From: Alphaproteobacteria bacterium
GTDB taxonomy: Bacteria; Pseudomonadota; Alphaproteobacteria; CAAHEQ01; UBA3637
Length of the DNA: 64,000 nucleotides
Assembly (NCBI GenBank): GCA_017453485.1
Contig: JAFTEW010000058.1
Location: forward strand, 1,890-65,889
Reading direction: 5' to 3'
Below, piece by piece: positions 30,544 to 61,109 of the stretch. Positions within the stretch are counted from its first letter, which is position 1; every line of letters begins with the position of its first letter. The notes under the pieces are model-generated. The model searched no databases and was not told the origin of the DNA. It worked only from the letters and a program-made list of their open reading frames with translations. The translations under genes were made by a program, and so were the position numbers.

Positions 30544-30646
30544 CGACTGGAAGGTCGCAAAATAGGCCGTTCAGTCGGCTAATATGCACACTATCACTTT
30601 AATAGCTTTCAACTTCCAGTCGTCCCTCACCAGGACGTACTTTTTT
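30544..30646 (+). promoter_or_regulatory. candidate transcription-attenuation leader (terminator/antiterminator) upstream of the pilin-like Cys-rich gene
   Basis: CGACTGGAAG (30544-30553) is perfectly complementary to CTTCCAGTCG (30613-30622). That element overlaps the 5' arm of the terminator-like hairpin AGTCGTCC...GGACGtACT followed by T6 (30618-30646). A second CAGTCG copy at 30572-30577 offers a third pairing. Confidence 0.45.
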
Positions 30647-30658
30647 AGGGGAAGCGCT

Positions 30659-32134
30659 ATGAAACGGAATAAGACAGAGTTGGGACGGAGTATGGTAGAG
30701 ATGTTGGGGACGCTGGCCATTATGGGGGTTCTCACCATCGGGGGGATTGCCGGCTATAACTATGCCATTACGAAACATCGGGCCAATACGCTGTTTACAG
30801 AAGCCAAAATGAATGCCGTTCAAATTGCCGGATTAGCATTGACCCACGGATTGCCGGAAGAATTTTCCTTAAACACAGATACTTACCATCTAAATTATGA
30901 AAAAGAATCCGATATCGGGTATGTTTTGTATGCTAATGACATAGCTACTGACGTTTGTCGGATCGTTCAACGAAACCGGAAAGTATCTTGGGCGGAATTA
31001 GTTCTGATTAACGAGGGACAAGGATGTTTGGACACGGATAACCTGATTGAATTTTATATCAACACCCGGATGGATACGGAAACGACCAATCCCGATCGGG
31101 CTGATTTGTGCGAATCCGATGCGGATTGCGGGGAATGCGGGACCTGTCAACCCGGTGGTGTTTGCCTGTTTAAAAATGATTCTTGCCCCGACCCTGCCAA
31201 ACCTTACTGTAATCGCGGCACCTGCCAGGGATGTGAAGACGGTAAGTATCGAAATGTGAACGGAACATGCGTCAGTTGCGATACCATCAGTAAAACAACC
31301 CCGTTTGAATGCCATACATGCCCCAACCATTTTATCTCCACACAAGGGTATTGTTACGATTGTGAAAATACGGTAAATGTTGCGCTGGCTGCAACGGATG
31401 AGGAATGTTACAGTTGCCCTAACCGATTAAATGCCGGTCGTTATTGTTATCACTGCAATTCAAAATTTTCCCATGAAACGGCCGATGTTGCGCTTTGTTC
31501 AAAATGCGCCAATCGCTATGTGACTTATCGGGGATGCTTTTTATGTGAGGGAGAGGTGTCCGCTGACCATAAATCCTGTATTTTTCACTGTCCGTCGGGT
31601 TATTTCGGCAGTCACAGAGGTTGCCAACCTTGTGATAGTTCCGAAGCACGCGTCTTTATGCAACCTGCCAATGATGCCGACGGCCGTGCCGATTGTGAAT
31701 CATGTCCCAATCGGGAATATGTTTCAAATGGGCATAGCAACCCCGCTGATGGCCGCTACTGCGCCATAAAATGTGATGATCCGGATAAATTTTTGGATGC
31801 AAATGGAAACTGTCGCAATTGTGACAGCGATTCATTTGCTTTGGGTTGGGATAACGGACCCAATGTGAATACGATTTATAAACCGTTTTTGGAAAAATGC
31901 TTATCCTGCCCAAATATGATCCGTGATAATAGCAATAGTGCTTCTTGTGTCAATTTGAACAGCACGGCCCAAACATGGTGTTTCACACCGGACCGATGCA
32001 AACAATATTTTAAGGGTAAACGCTATGTTGCTAAGGCAACCTGGGTCTATCAATGCACGCTGTGTCCGGAAAAAGATTCCGAAGCCTGGCATAACTTGAC
32101 AGCCGAGCAACAGGAACAATGTACCCCCGGTTAA
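30659..32134 (+). CDS. type IV pilin/pseudopilin-leader protein with large Cys-rich (CxxC / CxxCPN repeat) C-terminal domain
   Basis: The N-terminus MKRNKTELG|RSMVEMLGTLAIMGVLTIGG is a class III (prepilin) signal with Glu at +5 and a hydrophobic helix. About 43 Cys follow, mostly as CxxC pairs, with five CxxC(P/A)N repeats. The start is at the internal ATG after AGGGGA. Confidence 0.7.
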   Translation: MKRNKTELGRSMVEMLGTLAIMGVLTIGGIAGYNYAITKHRANTLFTEAKMNAVQIAGLALTHGLPEEFSLNTDTYHLNYEKESDIGYVLYANDIATDVCRIVQRNRKVSWAELVLINEGQGCLDTDNLIEFYINTRMDTETTNPDRADLCESDADCGECGTCQPGGVCLFKNDSCPDPAKPYCNRGTCQGCEDGKYRNVNGTCVSCDTISKTTPFECHTCPNHFISTQGYCYDCENTVNVALAATDEECYSCPNRLNAGRYCYHCNSKFSHETADVALCSKCANRYVTYRGCFLCEGEVSADHKSCIFHCPSGYFGSHRGCQPCDSSEARVFMQPANDADGRADCESCPNREYVSNGHSNPADGRYCAIKCDDPDKFLDANGNCRNCDSDSFALGWDNGPNVNTIYKPFLEKCLSCPNMIRDNSNSASCVNLNSTAQTWCFTPDRCKQYFKGKRYVAKATWVYQCTLCPEKDSEAWHNLTAEQQEQCTPG

Positions 32135-45959: not shown

Positions 45960-47906
45960 CTATTTCGATCGGCCTTTTTTCTTTTTGATCGGCGGATCAA
46001 TCACTTTAAAAATCTTCACATTTGTTTTCGGATCAACATAATCCAACTGCAACCAATCCGACATATCTTTTGTTTCGTAATACACACTGTAATGAAAACT
46101 ATTTTCTAATCCGTCATAGTTCTTTTTGGTCTTCGGGTTTTTAAATAAGAATCCTAAACAATCGGGATTTTGCAACAGAACGGTGCTCACCTGATGCTTT
46201 TTCAATAATTCTTTGGCTGTTGTGAACGGTGGCCGATCCAAAGCTATCACAGCCGAATCTGTGATACCGTCCACATTGCGATCATACGGCCCGCCTAATC
46301 CCGGTCGACCGGTTTCCCAGTTGATTTGCGGAGCCGAGAATAAATCACTGAACACAGCACCATCCGCGAATGTTCCCTTCATTTTTTCCAATACCTTTTC
46401 CGACAATGAACAAGCATATCCTTTTGCGGTATTATTTTCGTTATTTTTGTTCTTGACCGTATTTTGATTAGGTTGTTCTTCTTCCTTTTCATTTTGAATA
46501 ATTTTATCAAAGCTTTCTCTTAAAAACTCGGGGATATCAATATCTTTGTTTTCCCGGTATTGGTTCAAATAGTATCTGGCTCCCCAGGATTGAAAATGCC
46601 GTAAAATGGTCACCCCTTTTATCATGGCACCAACAAAGACTAAATAAAACGCCAAAAAGATCAGACTGCGCATAAATGATTTTTCCCGAGGCGCAAAAGT
46701 CAGGTTTAAATACCCGGCACCCAAAAAGCAAAAGAACGCATTTTGACTGATTCCGGCCCGAATATGAAAAATCATAATGGTTGCATAGAACAGCGTTCCG
46801 ACAGATACCATTAACATAAAGGGAGCCATCCTGTTTTTCCCCCACCGAACAAGGCTCCATATACAAAGACACGGTGCTAACATCAACGGCAGAATGGCCA
46901 ATGTTAACAGTTCAATCCAGTTTTCGGATAACGGGCGCATTTCACTGACTTTTGATGTCCACAGGTAATACATAAACGGGTCCACCATCGGCACCAACAA
47001 AACCGAATGAAAGCCGAACAACAGCACACATCCCAAAATCATAACACCCAATAAACCATATATTAGACGACAAACTCTATTGCGCCGAACCCCCGAATAG
47101 GATAATCCCCCCATTAAAATCAGGTTAAATACGCCCAATAAAACATGAAACAGCGATGGCCTGGCAAAATCAAGCGTCCAAAATCCTGCCATCGGATGAT
47201 CAAAAGTCATAGCACCTAACAAAACGATTGTATATGCCCCCGTATAGAGCAAAGCCGGTTTCAAAGATCGATTATGCCATAACCAACCAAAAGCCATCGG
47301 AACCATCAACAAATAAATGTTGATGAAAAACTCCGGTGTTATCCATGTACCCAAAGCCGACAAAACACCGGCAGCGATAAAATAACCGTTATTTCGTTTA
47401 ACCAATAATCCGCGAGCAACAAGCCCGATACTCCACACCAACAACATAAAATGGAAACAGTGGTGGTCAAAATAACCGACAGAAGCCTGTCCCCAACTGT
47501 ATCCGATACCGCATAAAAACAGCCAGAAAGCCCCAAATGCCATCTTGGGTGTCAAATATCCCCGACAGGCAAAAAAGAACCCGCGAACCGCTACAAGCAT
47601 CACCAAGACAGGCACAAAATAAGACATGATTTCCAATGCCCTTTTTAGACCCCAATTCGGAATAAACGGCCAGGCAAAAGCATATCCGATGATATCCAAC
47701 GGCCGTGTCCAGTGCATTTCAAATCCGAAAGGATAGTTTTGTCCGAATACCACCTGTTCCCGCCAAGGGAAACCGGCATTGGCCCATTCCATAATCCGGC
47801 TCATCCGGGCCCATACATCGGTTGACCAAAAAACCGAAAACGGCACATAGACAAACAAAGTCATCAGGGCCGCTAACCAAAAAACACGCTTATAAGATGA
47901 AAACAT
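45960..47906 (-). CDS. polytopic GT-C-fold membrane glycosyltransferase, STT3/AglB-like, with C-terminal soluble domain
   Basis: First-loop Asp (STDVWARMSR; compare DPWFNYR), NYPFG...RPL, GYFDHH (compare SYDNE / archaeal DHH) and KVSEMRP (compare the SVSE EL5 motif). The WWDYG position reads SWGARYY. About 13 TM helices plus a roughly 200-aa C-terminal domain. Confidence 0.6.
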   Translation of the reverse strand: MFSSYKRVFWLAALMTLFVYVPFSVFWSTDVWARMSRIMEWANAGFPWREQVVFGQNYPFGFEMHWTRPLDIIGYAFAWPFIPNWGLKRALEIMSYFVPVLVMLVAVRGFFFACRGYLTPKMAFGAFWLFLCGIGYSWGQASVGYFDHHCFHFMLLVWSIGLVARGLLVKRNNGYFIAAGVLSALGTWITPEFFINIYLLMVPMAFGWLWHNRSLKPALLYTGAYTIVLLGAMTFDHPMAGFWTLDFARPSLFHVLLGVFNLILMGGLSYSGVRRNRVCRLIYGLLGVMILGCVLLFGFHSVLLVPMVDPFMYYLWTSKVSEMRPLSENWIELLTLAILPLMLAPCLCIWSLVRWGKNRMAPFMLMVSVGTLFYATIMIFHIRAGISQNAFFCFLGAGYLNLTFAPREKSFMRSLIFLAFYLVFVGAMIKGVTILRHFQSWGARYYLNQYRENKDIDIPEFLRESFDKIIQNEKEEEQPNQNTVKNKNNENNTAKGYACSLSEKVLEKMKGTFADGAVFSDLFSAPQINWETGRPGLGGPYDRNVDGITDSAVIALDRPPFTTAKELLKKHQVSTVLLQNPDCLGFLFKNPKTKKNYDGLENSFHYSVYYETKDMSDWLQLDYVDPKTNVKIFKVIDPPIKKKKGRSK

Positions 47907-53497: not shown

Positions 53498-53573
<76 letters not shown>

Positions 53574-53598
53574 AAGCCTTTTTAACAAAGGCTTTTTT
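53574..53598. terminator. bidirectional terminator shared by tRNA-Ala and the convergent four-gene operon
   Basis: AAAGCCTT-tttaaca-AAGGCTTT followed by TTT. The 8-bp stem starts at the terminal A of the CCA (53573). The stop codon of the minus-strand 159-aa ORF lies in the T-run. Confidence 0.65.
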
Positions 53599-54076
53599 AT
53601 ATGCTTTTTTCCATATTCATACCCGTCGGCAATTTCTTTTGAATCGGCTGAATCATATAGTTCAAAAAATCCACAAAAGTTGCAAAATGCAGGATGACCT
53701 GATAGGTGTATCTGTCCAATAATTGATATTCCTTGACACTGAAATCATAAACAATCAAAGTTTCCCACCCGTATCCCAATAACAATTTTTTTCGCATCAC
53801 GGCATTATTTTGGCAAAATTGATAATTTTGCAAAATACCGGGATGATGAAAAGCCCCCTTATTTCGTTCAATGTTTTCCAAAGAAAACAAATCCACGCCA
53901 TTCCAAGATAATCCGTTTGTCATCGCCAAAAAGGATACATAATCCAACGGAATGGGGGGCACACCGGCCTTAACTAATTTGACAGAAGTCTGTTGCACCA
54001 ATTTCGGCTCAATGGCCGGAAAAACAACGGCATAATTTTCATACAGACATTTTAAGCATTGTTTTAATTCAGACAT
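53597..54076 (-). CDS. SUKH-1 (SMI1/KNR4)-like putative immunity protein
   Basis: ...GVPPIPLDYVSFLAMTNGLSWNGVDLFSL... and the C-terminal ...LLLGYGWETLIVYDFSVKEYQLLDRYTYQV...FATFVDFL match the SMI1_KNR4 pattern (LP.dY..FL...NG; ig..g....l.d; sF.eFL). The gene starts 4 nt after the HNH-like gene. Confidence 0.6.
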   Translation of the reverse strand: MSELKQCLKCLYENYAVVFPAIEPKLVQQTSVKLVKAGVPPIPLDYVSFLAMTNGLSWNGVDLFSLENIERNKGAFHHPGILQNYQFCQNNAVMRKKLLLGYGWETLIVYDFSVKEYQLLDRYTYQVILHFATFVDFLNYMIQPIQKKLPTGMNMEKSI

Positions 54077-54080
54077 CGGA

Positions 54081-54761
54081 TTACCTCCCCGGCATTGTTT
54101 TTAGGGCTATATCCCGCAAAGCACTTTGGGTAAAGCCCGACAAAACAGAACGGTCTTGTTTATTTTTACCGCCGGAACCGGTAAACAATCCCATCGGGAT
54201 ATACACTTTCCCCCGTGGTACCGGCACATAAAGTTGCTTCGGAGTCAGATATCCTTCCGGTCCGATAATTTGTTTATCAATATAGCGATGGATTAAATCG
54301 TGAAACGGACGAGCCTGGATAAAGACCATATTCTCAAAAGAGATTGTTCCACCATAATCCAACGGATATTTTAGATGGACAACAAAATTTTCAGGTTGTT
54401 GTCCCCGTTTCATATAGAATAATCCTTCTTCCGTCACGCCGGCTGAGCGTAAATCATTGGCGTGATGATAGGATAAAAAACGTACAAAGTCACGGATAGT
54501 CCGATTTAATTGTTTCTGACGACCGATCAGATCCGAATTATCCTGTGCATAATGATTAACCGCCATTAAATCCATACCCGGAAAATTCATGCTGTTAAAC
54601 AAATTTTCCCAGTAAGCCTGCCCCTGTTCTTCCAATTGTAAATTGTTCAGTTCGGCATCATCAAACAAGGGTGTTTCCAACAACTGATTCCAATCGCTGA
54701 ATACATCTTCCGCATTCAATGTGGTTGACAAGGACAGTTGTTCCGTTTTTTCTGTTGTCAT
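54081..54761 (-). CDS. putative nuclease toxin/effector with colicin-DNase-like HNH (beta-beta-alpha-Me) domain
   Basis: DFVRFLS...MKRGQQP...VVHLKYPLDYGGTISFENMVFIQARPFHDLIH aligns by eye with colicin E9 DNase DFRKKFW...MKVGKAP...[32 protein letters not shown]. The N-terminal ~110 aa are acidic, there is no signal peptide, and the C-terminal tail is basic. Confidence 0.6.
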   Translation of the reverse strand: MTTEKTEQLSLSTTLNAEDVFSDWNQLLETPLFDDAELNNLQLEEQGQAYWENLFNSMNFPGMDLMAVNHYAQDNSDLIGRQKQLNRTIRDFVRFLSYHHANDLRSAGVTEEGLFYMKRGQQPENFVVHLKYPLDYGGTISFENMVFIQARPFHDLIHRYIDKQIIGPEGYLTPKQLYVPVPRGKVYIPMGLFTGSGGKNKQDRSVLSGFTQSALRDIALKTMPGR

Positions 54762-54762
54762 T

Positions 54763-56958
54763 TTATGCCTTTAATTGTTCGTCGTCGTCTTCCAATTCCA
54801 ACATATCATTCTGCATTAAGGCTCGCAAAGCAGCCATATCCGTTTCTTCCCGTTGGGCAACCACCCAATATGGGACAAACGGTGCCGTCGGTAAAGAGCA
54901 TTTTTTACGCATTTTTTTATCCAAATACCAACGGGGCGCATCCGCCAAAATCGGCCGATTTAAAAAGCCCTGAAATAAGACATATTGTTTTAACATATTC
55001 AAACTCATCATTTCGGAAGCTCCAACAACATTGGAACTTTGTAATGAGCGGGATACGTTGGCCGCAAACGGATTTGTCTGCATAGACACCCCTTCCGTCC
55101 GAGATGAACTGGCCACTTCAATGGTCCGCGAACCAATCATTTTAGAAAACCGTTCAGCGGTTTGTTCATTGTTTTGGGCTAAAATAACTTTGGCGGCCGT
55201 TGTTGTAATGATTGTTTCCAAATCATCTTTTCCATATTGACCGGAAATTTGTCCCAAATCTTGTCCGATTAACAAATAAGCCACTTTTTGCCCCCGTCCG
55301 ACAGCCGGTCCGTCTTTAACGGCAGCTAATTTCGGCATTTGCGGGAATTCGTCCAAGACAAATAACACCGGATAAGGTCCGACTTTAACCCCATCTGACC
55401 CCATATCATTCGGCTTATTGGAAATCAGGTATGAACTCATCAATTCAACAAACACACCTGTAATCACGTTTAATGTCCGGGCATCAACCTGATTAACTGA
55501 CAAGTAAACCGATATTGGCTTCATTTCACCGGTAATGGGATCAATCATTCCCCGCAAATCACGGAAGGTTAAATCACTGAATTTTGTCCGTGTCCGAACA
55601 GCCGAGTTTTTAAAGATGTTAATGCCGGAAAATGCCGTTGACAAAATAGATCCGCGTTCCTTGTCCGGAGTTCCGGCTAACTGTGATAATTCAACTGTCG
55701 CCCGTCGGGCATAACCGAATCGTTCACTTTCGGCAATTGCCAATTTTAACGCATCTGCCCCGGCATCTGCAAAAGCCGCCGCCTGATCCCCTTCATCTTG
55801 GCGCCGTTTTAAGTCGGCATTAATTTTCATTTGGATATCTGTCCACCAATCAAAAATCATAGCAATACACGGCTCATTTCCTTGCCAACTTTCCGGCAAA
55901 CCTTCCCAGGTTCCGACCGGTGCATAATTATCCAACGTCAGCGTTCCCTCTTTTAACGCTTCCAGAGAAATACGCGCACTCGGATCTGTCATATCCATAT
56001 AATAGGTTTCCAATACTTCGGCATCTTCTTTATCAAACGATCCTTCACTCAATTTTGAAATAAAGTAATCATTGGCTCTGGCCCGCTCGCATTTACTGCA
56101 AATAAAGTGTAGAAAACCGGACATAGCGTTTCGTCCTGTTTTAGACCAGTGCGGATCTGCTCCGCCTTTCGGTTCTTCTACCAAGACCGCCACCATTGAG
56201 TCAATATACATATCCCGGCCCGGCCCTAACGGTGGCAAACAAGTTGGGGATAACGGGTTCCAACTGGGATAATAAACACCTTTTTCCGGATCATCCTCGG
56301 CTCCCCAGTTAATCACAAAGACCGGTCCTTGTGTTGCCCGATACCCAGACGTGTTATAACACAATTCAGGTTTGGGGTCGTTAATAATTAAACTTAATCC
56401 CGGTGATTCCAATATGGTTGGGATCACAACCCCAGCTGTTTTACCGGTTCCCGGAGGTGCCACCACCAAAGCCGATAACGTTTCCGGCATTTTCAATAAT
56501 TTTCCCTTAAATCGTCCCAAGACAATGACAAAGCCCTTAAAAAGTCCCATTTTTTCAACATCAGCATAGGTTGCTTTTCGGCCGCTGCCAAACACATTGG
56601 GGCGATAACTATAAGGATTTGTCACAATGCGATAGACAACAAAAGCACCGGATAAAACAAATGCCATATAGGGTAAATACAAAATCGGAGATGGATTATT
56701 GGTTGTTTTTAAAACGCCCAGATACTGGCGAAAAACACCGACGATTCCACTCAACGGAGAAACAACAGACGGCTTCCAAACTTTTGTCCATGCCCATCCA
56801 AGGGATTCAACCCCGAAACCGACCAAAACAAAATTAACCACCGGAATAAAAATAAGCAACAACAGCCACGTCAACGGTATCGCTAAAAAGAAACTTAATA
56901 AAATTCTGGCAATACACTTTTGTTGTTCTTCGTATGCTTCGTCTCGTTTAAAAGCCAT
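54763..56958 (-). CDS. virD4: VirD4/TraG-family type IV coupling protein (T4CP)-like ATPase
   Basis: Two N-terminal TM helices, FGSGRKATYADVEKMGLF (compare hGsArwA), Walker A APPGTGKTAGVVIPT, Walker B PVLFVLDEFPQM and IGQDLGQISGQYGKD...TAERFSKMIG. The C-terminus is acidic (ELEDDDEQLKA). Confidence 0.85.
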   Translation of the reverse strand: MAFKRDEAYEEQQKCIARILLSFFLAIPLTWLLLLIFIPVVNFVLVGFGVESLGWAWTKVWKPSVVSPLSGIVGVFRQYLGVLKTTNNPSPILYLPYMAFVLSGAFVVYRIVTNPYSYRPNVFGSGRKATYADVEKMGLFKGFVIVLGRFKGKLLKMPETLSALVVAPPGTGKTAGVVIPTILESPGLSLIINDPKPELCYNTSGYRATQGPVFVINWGAEDDPEKGVYYPSWNPLSPTCLPPLGPGRDMYIDSMVAVLVEEPKGGADPHWSKTGRNAMSGFLHFICSKCERARANDYFISKLSEGSFDKEDAEVLETYYMDMTDPSARISLEALKEGTLTLDNYAPVGTWEGLPESWQGNEPCIAMIFDWWTDIQMKINADLKRRQDEGDQAAAFADAGADALKLAIAESERFGYARRATVELSQLAGTPDKERGSILSTAFSGINIFKNSAVRTRTKFSDLTFRDLRGMIDPITGEMKPISVYLSVNQVDARTLNVITGVFVELMSSYLISNKPNDMGSDGVKVGPYPVLFVLDEFPQMPKLAAVKDGPAVGRGQKVAYLLIGQDLGQISGQYGKDDLETIITTTAAKVILAQNNEQTAERFSKMIGSRTIEVASSSRTEGVSMQTNPFAANVSRSLQSSNVVGASEMMSLNMLKQYVLFQGFLNRPILADAPRWYLDKKMRKKCSLPTAPFVPYWVVAQREETDMAALRALMQNDMLELEDDDEQLKA

Positions 56959-56975
56959 TTAACCCCTCATACTCC

Positions 56976-58091
56976 TTAAAATAAATCCCTGATTTCGTTT
57001 AACTCCGTTTCTGTCCCTTTGGATTGTGCAACCGGCAATGCCGATCCGAATGCCGGTAATTCTTCGGGACCGCCCAAATCGGTCCGACAGACAACAACAT
57101 CCATTTTCTTCCACGTTTCCATCATATCGGCCGCATTGATAATCGTGCCTTCTTTTTCAATCAAGATAGGAACAACGGTCTGCGGGAACCCTTTATCGGT
57201 CACCTTTTTAGCAAAAGTTTTTGCCTCTGTCAAGAGCGTATAAACCGGCGATGTCCGATGGGATGTTTCCGAAAACCAAAGCGGTTCCTCATCGTTAAAG
57301 AAAGCCTCATCCGCCAACCAATCTCCTTTTTCCCCATCCGTCAGACATAGGACAATTTTATCCGTTGAAATACCGACATAGGACAAATTTGCTTTTCCGA
57401 TACTTACATCTTTGACAACCTGATAGTTTGCTGCCGATAAGATAGCGACCAAATCTTCCTCTAACCGGATTCGTTCCGGCATTTGAATATCCTCCAAAGG
57501 CATATTACTGATTTCTTCACTCAGGAACGCCGGCGGCTCGGTCATATCTGCATTAGCCGGAGCCATCTGCGCCGACATATTATAGTTATTTGCCGGTTCA
57601 TTTTGCGGTGAAACTTCCATCCTGGTCGGACCGACAGCGCTTTTTTCGGCATCCATTGTTCGACCCGTCTGTTTAATAGCCGGTCGTCCGGCAGAGACCA
57701 ACGGTTTAGGCCGCACTTTTTTATGAGAAGCCTTTGATTTGATTTTGATTTTTTTCCGAATAACTTTCTTTTGATCGGGTTTAAAGAAAAAGGATTTGAT
57801 TTTTTGATAGATCAGTTTAATTGATTTGCGCCAGGAAATTTTAACCGACACCCACCACAAAATGCCGAATATGGGAATCATCAGTAAAACGCTGATCAAC
57901 CAAAACCAAGAATAGGAATTTGAAATAACCCATCCGGATTGAAATTCTGACCAGACATGTTGCCAATGTCTCACTGAAAACAGGCGGAATTCCCAATTTT
58001 TATAAAAATATTCACGCCGATACCAGCCGAAAAAAATAATTCCGACCACCAATCCGACCCTGACAGTTCGTCCCCAATTACGCATGATCAA
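56976..58091 (-). CDS. membrane-anchored protein with Lys-rich linker and C-terminal NERD-like domain (tentative)
   Basis: Two or three N-terminal TM helices and a KKIKIKSKASHKKVRPKP linker. The C-terminal ~170 aa (LSYVGISTDKIVLCLTDGEKGDW...SPVYTL...VVPILIEKEG) loosely resemble NERD / restriction-endonuclease-like architecture. The gene ends 17 nt before the virD4-like gene. Confidence 0.4.
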   Translation of the reverse strand: MIMRNWGRTVRVGLVVGIIFFGWYRREYFYKNWEFRLFSVRHWQHVWSEFQSGWVISNSYSWFWLISVLLMIPIFGILWWVSVKISWRKSIKLIYQKIKSFFFKPDQKKVIRKKIKIKSKASHKKVRPKPLVSAGRPAIKQTGRTMDAEKSAVGPTRMEVSPQNEPANNYNMSAQMAPANADMTEPPAFLSEEISNMPLEDIQMPERIRLEEDLVAILSAANYQVVKDVSIGKANLSYVGISTDKIVLCLTDGEKGDWLADEAFFNDEEPLWFSETSHRTSPVYTLLTEAKTFAKKVTDKGFPQTVVPILIEKEGTIINAADMMETWKKMDVVVCRTDLGGPEELPAFGSALPVAQSKGTETELNEIRDLF

Positions 58092-58223: not shown

Positions 58224-60026
58224 TTAGAAGTGATACTTCAAAGTCGCATAAACACCATTCGTGTATTGTTTTTTCCGGAAAGCACCTTCATAGGTTGCCG
58301 ACAATTCCATCGGTCCGTTTGTCAGTTTCAAACTGGCACCGGCTTCCGTTCCGAACCGTTTCATTTTTTCACCGCGATAGGTGTATAATTTCTGTCCGGC
58401 ATAGCTGACACCGGCTTGATCATCGCCTTGCTTGATATCATATGTCAAGGCTAAATGAGCCGACGGCACCAAGCGCCAACCATGATCTTCTTTAAAGACG
58501 TGTTGGACATGGACTCCGGCCAAACCGGTCACGATATCCGTATTTTTGGTATGAACATCAACACCATAGGCATTTTTATAGCTATCAGAATCGATCCGGA
58601 TATAACGGGCACCGACACCGGCATCAATCCAGCCCCATTCATAGCCGACCGTTCCCTGACCGCCATAAACATCTGCATCCCATTTAACACCGTTGTTGTC
58701 GTATTTCATTTTGCTGTAACTGGCCATAGCGGAGATAAAGAACTGACTCGGCTTCCAAGCCCCATAGACAAATCCCGTATAACCGTCCAAGTCTGTTTTG
58801 CCACCGATATCGGCATCAAAACGACCGGATGTTTGGCTGTATCCGATACCCAATAATGTATTTGATCCGACAAATGTATCAATACCCAGGGCAATACCGG
58901 CTTGATGCATAGCGAAACCTTGTTTATCCATATCATTGCGGGTATGTGTATATAAGCCTTCTACCCACGGTGTAATATGGTTGCGTTCCCGCATACCGGC
59001 CAAAATTTCTTCATCATGTGCCGGCACAATGTGGTTATAGATAGCCCGAATGGTTGACACGGTTGTTTCCACAGCCGCATATTGGGCAGCGGCCGTTGCC
59101 GGACGCAAGTGGTCCAAGGCCGAAGCCACATTGGCGGATTGTCCCATTTGGACCAAGGTTGTAATGTTATCAAAGAAAGCATTACCACTTGTTCCCATCA
59201 TGGTTTTCAACAACGCCGCCTGTTCCGAAGTATAACCTTGCTCGGAAATACCGTTTTCATCTTTTTGTGTAACGGTATAGGCACCGCTGTTTTCTTGAAT
59301 GTTATAAAGCGGATTGTCATTAACATGCAACGAATTCTGGTTGGCATCAATACTGACATCCAATCCGTTTTCGTCAACGACACCATTGTCAATCACAAAA
59401 TTGACATTACCGGTGACGGTATCGGCTTCCACCAAAGTTTTACCACGGGTGTTGGTTCCGATACGAATACCGGCATTGCTGTCAAAGTTAACCGTTCCCG
59501 TTCCGGCGGAAGAACTCCAATCTGTATTATCAAAATTTTCAATCCCGTTTTGGAAAGAAATCGTTCCCGTATTGGTAACCCCACCATTGATGGCTGAATC
59601 ACCGTTTTGGAAAGTCATTGTTCCGGAGTTTGTAATATTTCCGTTCATTCCGGTTGTTCCGTCAAAGGTCATTGTCCCAGCATTTTGGGTATTACCGTTG
59701 ACCGTGTTATCTTTATTCCGGAATGTTAAAGTCCCGGTATTTTCAATATCACCGTTTACATTGATATCATTGGATTCAAACACAACAACTTCCGGTGTTT
59801 CCACATAGACGGCCTGTGTATAATCATCCGTTCCTAAATTGATTTGTTCCCAATCTGTTTTCGTAAAAACCGCACTTCCGTCTGTTGGTGCCTGAACACC
59901 ATTTTCCTTATAGTCAATAATACCTGAACCATAAGCGGAAAAGTCCGTAATATTTGTTGTTGCATTGGCGGTAAGGGCACACATACACCCCAAAGCAACG
60001 ATCGCTGTCATCATTTTTGTTTTCAT
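58224..60026 (-). CDS. autotransporter (type Va) outer membrane protein with repeat-rich passenger
   Basis: Signal peptide (ALGCMCALTANA). The passenger carries iterated N.G..N.GT.TF repeats. The C-terminal ~280 aa form a beta-barrel domain ending ...TLKYHF. Confidence 0.8.
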   Translation of the reverse strand: MKTKMMTAIVALGCMCALTANATTNITDFSAYGSGIIDYKENGVQAPTDGSAVFTKTDWEQINLGTDDYTQAVYVETPEVVVFESNDINVNGDIENTGTLTFRNKDNTVNGNTQNAGTMTFDGTTGMNGNITNSGTMTFQNGDSAINGGVTNTGTISFQNGIENFDNTDWSSSAGTGTVNFDSNAGIRIGTNTRGKTLVEADTVTGNVNFVIDNGVVDENGLDVSIDANQNSLHVNDNPLYNIQENSGAYTVTQKDENGISEQGYTSEQAALLKTMMGTSGNAFFDNITTLVQMGQSANVASALDHLRPATAAAQYAAVETTVSTIRAIYNHIVPAHDEEILAGMRERNHITPWVEGLYTHTRNDMDKQGFAMHQAGIALGIDTFVGSNTLLGIGYSQTSGRFDADIGGKTDLDGYTGFVYGAWKPSQFFISAMASYSKMKYDNNGVKWDADVYGGQGTVGYEWGWIDAGVGARYIRIDSDSYKNAYGVDVHTKNTDIVTGLAGVHVQHVFKEDHGWRLVPSAHLALTYDIKQGDDQAGVSYAGQKLYTYRGEKMKRFGTEAGASLKLTNGPMELSATYEGAFRKKQYTNGVYATLKYHF

Positions 60027-60044
60027 TTTTCAATCCTTTATTGA

Positions 60045-61109
60045 TTAGTTATTAATACGTTCAAATTGATTTTGTAATGTCATTTTATAAATGGCTGTTT
60101 TACCATTTTCCTGACTTGAAATCAATTTAGCCGCTCCATCAACATACCGAACGGGAACACCACCCAAAGATGTTGCGTAAGACGTTCCGTTTGTATTTCC
60201 GACATAAAGCGTCGTTCCGTCAGAAACCATTCCCGTCATTTGAGCTCCGTTCAGGTTAAATACAGACGGTGTTCCGTCACAATATAATTCCGTTCCGGTT
60301 GTCCAAAATAATTTTCCACCGGCAACTGCCATCTCTTTTACTGTGCCACTGACAACTTCCGTTCTGGTTGCATCCGATGTATTTTTGGCATCATAGGAAA
60401 TAATACCGTTACCATCAGAGAAATAAACTTTATCATCGGATTGCGTAGCCATTGTCGGAAAATACGGAGCATGTTCCCGACCGTTTTGTTTTGTTACATC
60501 AAACCGATCCCCACTTTTTACTGCGCGAGTCACGGAACCGATAGCTGTATTTCCCGTATTGATACCCAGAATAATGATGTTGTTTTCATCATACATATAG
60601 GCAACCGGGCTTTTTAATTTAGCCGGACTTGTCGCATGTTCTTGGGCATACACTTTATTTGTTGTTGTCGTAAAACCACCCAAAGCGTTGCCATTCGGTG
60701 TGTTTATAAACACATTACCGTCTTCATCAGCTGTCGCGACGACACCGGTCTGTTCATTAACCAAGGAGCCGGCATTGGCACCCAAGACACCCTTACCACT
60801 GGCAAATCCTTGCTTGCCGTCCAAAGAAACCCGCACAAACGGCGCGGAGTTGGTGACTACCTCCATTCCTCCGGCCGGATGCGGATAGGTTACACCATCA
60901 ATCACTACTGTCCTGGCTTTTGGAACCGTATATTTCGCTTGACTGCGGTATGTCATAACAAATCCGTTAGACACTCCCAACACCTTATCAATCGGTGCAT
61001 TATCAAAGCAACCGGACTTTACGTCGATTTCGCCCTCATAGGCTCTTGCCCCGAAAACAGAACTTAAAGCCAACAACCCCGCCATCAGCGGACTTTTTTT
61101 GATATTCAT
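60045..61109 (-). CDS. secreted hypothetical protein (Gly/Thr/Asn-rich, beta-rich, possibly propeller-like)
   Basis: Signal peptide (LLALSSVFGARA). The gene ends 18 nt upstream of the autotransporter gene. I recognised no family. Confidence 0.5.
   Translation of the reverse strand: MNIKKSPLMAGLLALSSVFGARAYEGEIDVKSGCFDNAPIDKVLGVSNGFVMTYRSQAKYTVPKARTVVIDGVTYPHPAGGMEVVTNSAPFVRVSLDGKQGFASGKGVLGANAGSLVNEQTGVVATADEDGNVFINTPNGNALGGFTTTTNKVYAQEHATSPAKLKSPVAYMYDENNIIILGINTGNTAIGSVTRAVKSGDRFDVTKQNGREHAPYFPTMATQSDDKVYFSDGNGIISYDAKNTSDATRTEVVSGTVKEMAVAGGKLFWTTGTELYCDGTPSVFNLNGAQMTGMVSDGTTLYVGNTNGTSYATSLGGVPVRYVDGAAKLISSQENGKTAIYKMTLQNQFERINN

Follow-up and report, generated by a model that had tools for sequence, protein, structure and literature searches.

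What does a protein built on a toxin domain do in a conserved chromosomal operon, directly behind a VirD4-type coupling protein? The question is raised by a stretch of 64,000 nucleotides (nt) from an uncultured alphaproteobacterium (GenBank assembly GCA_017453485.1, contig JAFTEW010000058.1, positions 1,890 to 65,889), called the window here. An open reading frame (ORF) at 54081..54761, the target of this study, has the 226 residues given by an initial annotation and lies on the minus strand. That annotation took it for a colicin E9/pyocin-type DNase, translocated by the type IV coupling protein (T4CP) of a type IV secretion system (T4SS). The answer favored here, to which a probability of about one half can be given, is another one. 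Judged by its residues, the target may be a member of a domesticated toxin-immunity pair and serve as cargo or adaptor of the coupling protein, in a binding role rather than as a DNase. The target and its parts are listed below.

54081..54761, minus strand: target ORF, 226 residues, an HNH-derived protein (ORF list, ATG start; 118 homologues; AlphaFold2, AF2, model)
54621..54761, minus strand: acidic N-terminus, residues 1-47, predicted to be disordered (net charge -10; predicted local distance difference test, pLDDT, below 70)
54192..54620, minus strand: globular core, residues 48-190, which shares homology with the 'VHH' HNH domain found in polymorphic toxins (profile search, BLASTP)
54267..54386, minus strand: beta-beta-alpha-metal motif, residues 126-165, FVVHLKYPLDYGGTISFENMVFIQARPFHDLIHRYIDKQI, with H129, N144, H154 and H158 (translation, DSSP, alignments)
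54372..54377, minus strand: codons of H129 and L130, the latter in the general-base slot (E9 His103) (translation 'HL')
54084..54191, minus strand: Gly hinge and conserved basic C-terminal tail, residues 191-226, GLFTGSGGKNKQDRSV..ALRDIALKTMPGR (translation)

The residues that the initial annotation quoted (DFVRFLS, LFYMKRGQQP, VVHLKYPLDYGGTISFENMVFIQARPFHDLIH and the tail GGKNKQDRSVLSGFTQSALRDIALKTMPGR) are all found in the translated target. The acidic N-terminal part, the lack of a signal peptide and the basic tail were also confirmed: residues 1-47 carry a net charge of -10, residues 191-226 carry +4 (a mean of +4.1 over the 118 homologues) and end in PGR, and the protein has no hydrophobic segment. 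The N-terminus has a conserved W-x-x-L-[LFM] motif with a conserved Trp, and its length varies, with long insertions in some homologues. None of the 118 homologues (43-100% identity) is annotated, and the target has no Pfam or NCBIfam match at E<=1 and no PADLOC match.

HNH homology and the catalytic residues

Is the likeness to a colicin DNase real? Two profiles were used, A1 for the close family and A2 for the broader family. Among solved structures, A2 found the Cas8f-HNH domain (E=1.7e-4), the pyocin AP41 DNase (4uhp, E=0.0015) and the HNH domain of a group II intron maturase (E=0.003); A1 and single sequences found nothing useful among PDB sequences, A1 having no match there. In hhalign comparisons with the colicin E9 DNase (a query sequence 100% identical to an annotated colicin-E9 plasmid gene), A2 scored E=2.3e-4 over 72 columns and A1 only E=0.057. 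The segments that were paired are RDFVRFLS with DDFRKAVW, YMKRGQQP with SVSKGYSP, and the beta-beta-alpha core. These are the same three that had been lined up by eye in the initial annotation, and the likeness is beyond chance. In the AF2 model, residues 48-190 have a pLDDT >90, and DSSP assigns strands to residues 126-130 and 145-149 and a helix to residues 150-165, giving the strand-strand-helix order. When this model was compared with the PDB by Foldseek, HNH domains made up 6 of the top 10 matches (Cas8f-HNH, Gme HNH and Cas9 HNH among them), all of them weak, and no colicin or pyocin was present in the top 50.

The register between the target and colicin E9 is as follows.

V127 of the target corresponds to Glu100 of E9
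H129 of the target corresponds to His102 of E9
L130 of the target corresponds to His103 of E9
N144 of the target corresponds to Asn118 of E9
H154 of the target corresponds to His127 of E9
H158 of the target corresponds to His131 of E9

Every alignment returned this register: hhalign, HMMER against the pyocin, BLASTP against an HNH endonuclease of IncHI2 plasmids (E=5e-15, 131 residues) and the gap-free family alignment. The initial annotation had equated the His of the target with the general base His103, which is one position off, and had placed Val at the His102 position. His102 is in fact kept as H129, Leu130 sits in the His103 slot, and the Val (V127) answers to Glu100. The Asn and the two distal His were rightly recognized. 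An alternative register with H129 at His103 was considered and rejected, since the strand would have to be shifted by one residue, against alignments that have no gaps at 30-35% identity, and the conserved H-x-x-P spacing would be broken. By these alignments, the metal-site residues are kept and the catalytic base is gone, the reverse of the earlier assignment.

The general base of E9-type DNases is His103; their His102 and His127 always take part in metal binding, His131 binds zinc or acts as a proton donor, and Glu100 is required for Mg-dependent activity (bioRxiv 10.1101/2020.04.29.068437). With both the general-base His and the Glu100 equivalent lost, the target is presumably no longer a potent DNase. 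Nor can it be counted in the colicin/pyocin DNase family: it has no Pfam Colicin-DNase match, V127 and L130 stand at Glu100 and His103, and its partner is not Im-type. The first His, the Asn, the distal H-x3-H, the upstream helix and the 'M.(K/R)G..P' segment do align with colicins E9/E7 and pyocins AP41/S2. However, the target differs from these DNases in two substitutions (His103->Leu, Glu100->Val), in an 11-residue deletion before the motif, in a YrhA/SUKH partner instead of a four-helix Im protein, and in having no receptor or translocation domains. On this comparison, it is a true relative of the HNH (beta-beta-alpha-Me, His-Me finger) superfamily, of toxin origin, and its colicin/pyocin likeness is at the level of the superfamily.

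The closer relatives are found among the polymorphic toxins. The A1 profile retrieved 559 relatives from 1.84 billion representatives, and in most of them the core of ~130 residues makes up the very C-terminal end of a longer protein (MuF_C, Portal_Mu, PT-HINT, RHS, Hcp). These toxin tips have a sub-threshold Pfam HNH (PF01844) match at the expected place. The same domain ends an Hcp-fused ORF next to ggt in E. coli (N-terminus T6SS_HCP, 2.5e-11; tblastn 35% identity, E=2e-9); the gene that adjoins ggt in E. coli K-12 is presumably yhhZ. It is also found as a 191-residue 'HNH endonuclease', followed by a 'YrhA family protein', on 446 mostly IncHI2 conjugative plasmids. By sequence, then, the target is closest to the 'VHH' tips of toxins linked to Hcp, Rhs, PT-HINT and MuF, which have YrhA/SUKH immunity, and E9 and AP41 are more distant. 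The Hcp-ET1 HNH-DNase effectors have been reviewed (PMC6730261). The YhhZ-like tips are homologous to the target end to end over ~130 residues, at 31-35% identity, and have a YrhA-family gene directly downstream. They read VHHK.P, with the general-base His, whereas the target reads VHLKYP. They stand at the C-terminus of delivery modules or alone on plasmids, end at the domain boundary and have no coupling protein adjoining, whereas the target is a fixed member of a T4CP operon and possesses an acidic N-terminus and a basic tail of its own.

The extent of the loss was determined by aligning all the retrieved proteins, 118 close homologues and 147 distant representatives, to the family hidden Markov model. 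In the close homologues, positions 129/130 read HL (107), HM (5), HI (4), HV (1) or LL (1), and never HH. The conservation expected of the motif residues thus holds for the metal-ligand His and the Asn (97-100%) and fails for the general-base His (0/118). HH is present in 85 of the distant representatives, which are toxin tips, and ~43 others have H followed by L, I, M, V, R or Q. A further ~12 have no His at 129, 154 and 158, and they keep N144, K131, P133, Y136-GG, Q164 and a Gly-rich basic tail. No T4CP-linked member examined has the base, and remoter ones have lost the metal ligands, a pattern that fits release from selection for catalysis.

These counts bear on the reading closest to the initial one, in which the target is an active HNH DNase toxin, neutralized by its YrhA/SUKH partner, recognized by the T4CP through its tail and injected by a T4SS encoded elsewhere. 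Homology to a toxin family together with an immunity-type partner is what such an effector would have, and so is a conserved metal triad with the Asn. Yet the base His is absent from all 118 homologues, the Glu100 equivalent is Val, and remoter relatives in homologous operons have lost every His, including the metal-binding ones. A potent nonspecific DNase, as first proposed, is therefore unlikely, and the wider reading of an active effector is an unlikely one as well.

Several individual relatives are worth recording. In P0086 (an L056-type locus from a 'Lactobacillales' metagenome-assembled genome, or MAG), H129, H154 and H158 are replaced together by L, A and R with the rest kept, and such a joint loss would be consistent with a single dispensable site. 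P0145 (L073:67-972, 301 residues) looks chimeric: its first half is near-identical to the T4CP-linked clade (P0122-like), and its second half has an intact VHHK 'HH' motif, which suggests recombination between domesticated and active forms. Its contig is too short for gene context. Five proteins of 455-665 residues (P0141, P0143, P0160, P0188 and P0256) have two or three tandem copies of the domain, several of them with degenerate motifs.

The operon and its inheritance

The target is one of four tightly packed minus-strand genes, which follow each other in the order membrane protein, T4CP, target and YrhA-like protein. The other three are listed here.

53597..54076, minus strand: 159-residue YrhA-family (SUKH-type) immunity-like protein, starting 4 nt after the target stop
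54763..56958, minus strand: 731-residue VirD4/TraG-type coupling protein, with a 1-nt gap to the target ATG
56976..58091, minus strand: 371-residue membrane protein; helices at the N-terminus are followed by a polybasic stretch, a disordered linker and, at the C-terminus, a PD-(D/E)xK-like domain

The 159-residue protein matches NCBIfam NF038335 at 58.6 bits (cutoff 55) and has weak SMI1_KNR4/SUKH matches. Two of the HH toxins, that of the IncHI2 plasmid and P0204, have YrhA-family partners (124 and 158 bits), and the 159-residue protein is homologous to both partners (E=2e-7 and 9e-6). Because of this, and because the target matches the plasmid toxin, the two neighbors can be derived from one HNH-toxin/YrhA-immunity cassette. 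The immunity gene that the initial annotation would expect beside a colicin-type HNH is thus present, although as a YrhA/SUKH-type gene following the target and not as an Im-type one. A role of the 159-residue partner as a small acidic chaperone like VirE1 was rejected, its isoelectric point being 8.4.

The coupling protein has Pfam matches to T4SS-DNA_transf (1e-52), TraG-D_C and TrwB_AAD_bind, a Walker A motif (APPGTGKT), a Walker B motif (VLFVLDE) and N-terminal hydrophobic segments, and its last 40 residues have a charge of -7. The nearest plasmid T4CPs are 33-35% identical, and that of Sphingosinicella p1, the only one whose context was inspected, adjoins VirB9/10/11-type genes. No VirB or other T4SS channel genes were found among the window ORFs scanned (the ten largest and the operon neighbors). 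On these matches, the ATPase is of the VirD4 kind but is separated from channel genes here.

How stable is this arrangement? A scan of one genome per species gave 64 loci, of which 61 are from MAGs of uncultured gut and rumen Alphaproteobacteria, one is from a 'Pseudomonadota' and two are from 'Lactobacillales', the last two being probably mis-binned. The gene order is kept at all 64 loci wherever the contig allows. The adjacency of target and T4CP described at the outset is thus upheld, with the two co-operonic in every genome examined. Identity to the window proteins is highest for the T4CP (63-94%), followed by the target (41-79%), the YrhA-like protein (29-76%) and the membrane protein (29-64%). 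Four further base-less relatives from other lineages come directly after a T4CP that is 63-72% identical. The gene after them, where it is on the contig, encodes a protein of 143-146 residues, and the one that was scanned belongs to the YrhA family (65.8 bits). In the H[LIM] class, every gene whose context was examined comes after a T4CP, and in the HH class none of the four examined has one adjoining. A no-His relative on a 45-kb chromosomal contig of an AT-rich lineage (L086:7192-11295) stands in a run that encodes a 595-residue protein, a homologue of the membrane protein, the target-like protein, a YrhA-like protein and an RHH_4 protein. There is no T4CP within 10 kb of it; the 595-residue protein is of low complexity, has no Pfam match and is not a T4CP. 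This module lies among ribosomal and amino-acid biosynthesis genes.

An anti-phage or anti-plasmid defense system, with an ATPase of the FtsK/HerA superfamily and nucleases, would have a similar make-up of ATPase and nuclease folds, and the T4CP has a weak PADLOC match to mad8 (E=7e-4). The other three proteins have no PADLOC match, and the operon is strictly conserved by vertical descent among housekeeping genes in 64 species, rather than scattered in the patchy manner of defense islands. Because of this strict conservation, a defense role is very improbable.

The membrane protein has 820 unannotated homologues, with no Pfam match and no curated model; the linker varies, and the polybasic stretch carries +12 over 36 residues. 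The C-terminal domain has invariant D252, D261, E262, H278 and R279 and the motif PLWFSE.SHR.SP. In the AF2 model (pLDDT 80), this domain is predicted to have a restriction-endonuclease-like fold, the best Foldseek matches being XisH, NucS/EndoMS, N.BspD6I, Hjc and FokI (E 0.015-0.5, probability up to 0.9). A DotM-like identity was considered and dropped: the listed matches are restriction-endonuclease folds, and DotM is not among the 50 matches listed.

Could such an operon process and pump DNA? In a relaxosome-like module, a ribbon-helix-helix (RHH) protein would mark the DNA, the restriction-endonuclease-fold protein and/or an attenuated HNH would nick or hold it, and the ATPase would pump it, for export or import. 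This is less likely still than an active effector, and the same must be said of the suggestion that the HNH-like protein takes the relaxase position of RHH-T4CP-relaxase operons. The PD-(D/E)xK-like fold does adjoin the T4CP, and MOBC relaxases, which are related to restriction endonucleases and are encoded beside a T4CP (CloDF13 MobB/MobC), offer a precedent. Also, HNH folds bind DNA, an RHH_4 gene is found upstream or downstream in ~39 of the 64 loci and in L086, and ComEC genes are nearby in several loci. However, neither an origin of transfer (oriT) nor a relaxase motif or covalent-linkage residue could be identified, the restriction-endonuclease-like protein is membrane-anchored with an acidic motif that is not the canonical D...(D/E)xK, and HNH catalysis appears to be disabled. 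The RHH gene is absent from the window, and the proximity of ComEC is sporadic.

The surroundings are those of an ordinary chromosome, with PEPCK, MetRS, RNase E/G, QueH and MscL in the window. When the flanking ORFs of the 64 loci were clustered, only a J-domain protein (34 loci) and the RHH_4 protein (~39 loci) recurred, and the other sampled ORFs were housekeeping. At L001, L003 and roughly half of the 64 loci, the RHH_4 gene and a divergently transcribed J-domain gene come before the membrane-protein gene, ahead of the operon; the window has neither. A ComEC (Competence) gene is located within a few kb of the operon at L003:14164-15720, L052:11007-13025 and five similar loci, which may be a coincidence. 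In the window, an autotransporter (600 residues, Pfam Autotransporter 1.7e-27) and a 354-residue ORF lie at 58224-61109 (minus strand), between the operon and DUF3078/MscL. The pair looks like a lineage-specific insertion, because DUF3078/MscL directly abut the operon in four close relatives (L006-L009) and neither ORF was matched in related loci. At the other end, positions 53498-53600 hold a tRNA-Ala(cgc), and the space that separates it from the operon's 3' end has an AAGCC...GGCTT hairpin followed by a T-run, probably a shared terminator. An island integrated at this tRNA-Ala was rejected: this genome is alone in having the tRNA beside the operon, none was adjacent at ten related loci, and close relatives have the same MscL-DUF3078 synteny upstream. 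Two other ORFs of the window, of 648 residues (45960-47906, minus strand) and 516 residues (30584-32134, plus strand), have no Pfam match at E<=1e-5.

The tail and its secretion precedents

In an alignment of 42 homologues, N144 is invariant and H129, H154 and H158 are conserved to at least 90%. Few stretches there are as well conserved as the tail (GSGGKNKQDRS...MPGR), which is a conserved motif, not a loose cluster of charges. The tail is absent from 78 of 104 full-length representatives of the domain, most of which end 0-5 residues past the core. For this reason, the Gly hinge and basic helix are read, from sequence comparison, as an addition in part of the T4CP-linked group that the free toxin domains do not have.

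Some points speak for an active effector. The tail is an add-on with a net charge of ~+4 and a terminal Arg, the adjacency to a T4CP is strict, and TfdA of Stenotrophomonas is a T4SS-delivered GHH (HNH superfamily) nuclease with an immunity gene, whose C-terminal region is proposed to engage VirD4 (PMC11253643). Other features of the locus fit an effector poorly. Over the 64 species, the gene is present in single copy, is inherited vertically and is not polymorphic, there are no VirB genes in the window or flanks, and relatives without the tail are still T4CP-linked. The target resembles TfdA and the Xanthomonas effector/immunity pairs X-Tfe/X-Tfi in its HNH-superfamily domain, its adjacent immunity-type gene and a C-terminal region proposed for contact with VirD4. 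Yet those effectors have a XVIPCD of ~120 residues, an intact HH pair, a VirB/D4 cluster in the genome and a patchy distribution, whereas the target has a 36-residue tail, lacks the general base, has no VirB genes close by and is strictly conserved by vertical descent.

Other systems offer partial parallels. VbhT/VbhA of Bartonella is a toxin-antidote pair that has gained a secretion element at the C-terminus and a link to a T4SS. VbhT differs from the target in fold and signal, being an active FIC toxin with a BID domain. Coupling proteins may also depend on accessory subunits, small co-encoded proteins required for T4CP function, such as DotM/DotN/IcmSW for DotL and TrwA for TrwB, and among these subunits is a membrane protein whose gene directly precedes that of the T4CP. 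In the target operon, no protein was found to resemble these subunits in sequence or fold, and the soluble domain of the upstream one matches restriction-endonuclease folds instead. A literature search gave nothing relevant on this operon type or on the secretion systems of the RF32/CAG-239 gut Alphaproteobacteria.

A proposed domesticated toxin-immunity pair

How might a toxin have come to this position? The ancestor would have been a 'VHH'-type HNH DNase tip with its YrhA/SUKH immunity protein, a cassette like those of YhhZ-like Hcp, of Rhs, PT-HINT and MuF toxins, and of IncHI2 plasmids. The pair may then have been captured, in one lineage, into an operon with a VirD4-type ATPase and a membrane-anchored protein of restriction-endonuclease fold. 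After capture, it would have been freed from selection for catalysis, with selection still acting on the fold, the partner and the new terminal extensions. In this clade, the domain would keep its fold, the structural Asn and three metal-binding His, and the target probably still binds a metal ion, perhaps zinc, as its residues suggest. Its function could then lie in binding to the YrhA-type partner and to either the coupling or the membrane protein, possibly also to DNA. Docking would likely be through the acidic motif at the N-terminus and the Gly hinge with its basic helix at the C-terminus. The coupling protein could ship the target as non-lytic cargo, or the target could stay behind as an adaptor subunit.

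A number of points weigh against this domesticated pair. The immunity-type partner has been retained, as expected of an active toxin, and the motif residues are conserved as in one: N144 in 118/118, H129 in 117/118, H154 in 114/118 and H158 in 115/118 of the close homologues. Another residue, or metal-bound water alone, could support slow or specific cleavage. The Foldseek scores behind the HNH fold are weak, with a best E of 0.22 and a TM score below 0.2. Some T4CP-linked relatives have no tail, and the no-His class has no adjacent T4CP; neither the tail nor the T4CP link is therefore universal in the wider family. Lastly, the absence of T4SS channel genes holds for the 10 kb around the operon at the 64 loci, the whole genomes not having been searched.

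A further reading is more tentative. The HNH and YrhA/SUKH proteins could be non-catalytic core subunits of an undescribed inner-membrane machine. Such a machine would be made of the VirD4-type ATPase and the restriction-endonuclease-fold membrane protein, passed on vertically across a clade of gut Alphaproteobacteria, and would work without a neighboring T4SS channel, perhaps without any. It is a possibility, less likely than cargo or adaptor in a domesticated pair. If it were true, a coupling protein would have been put to a new use, and the HNH protein would be a clear example of how a polymorphic-toxin domain can become a pseudoenzyme.

In either form, the target and its neighbors are a new variant of both HNH toxin/immunity pairs and T4CP-associated proteins, in an uncharacterized conserved operon. 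For three of its four proteins (the target, the restriction-endonuclease-fold membrane protein and this subtype of T4CP partner), there is no curated family for the defining domain. The operon is also a simple system to test, with four genes and one residue to revert. Coupling proteins are viewed as gatekeepers of conjugation and effector secretion, and polymorphic HNH toxins as fast-evolving weapons. Here, the two are brought together in one strictly conserved chromosomal operon of an uncultured, host-associated alphaproteobacterial clade, with the catalytic base of the toxin removed. A target that is still secreted would be a cargo for a T4SS that acts by binding and not by cutting. If it is not, a toxin-immunity pair would have been recycled as structural parts of a coupling-protein complex.

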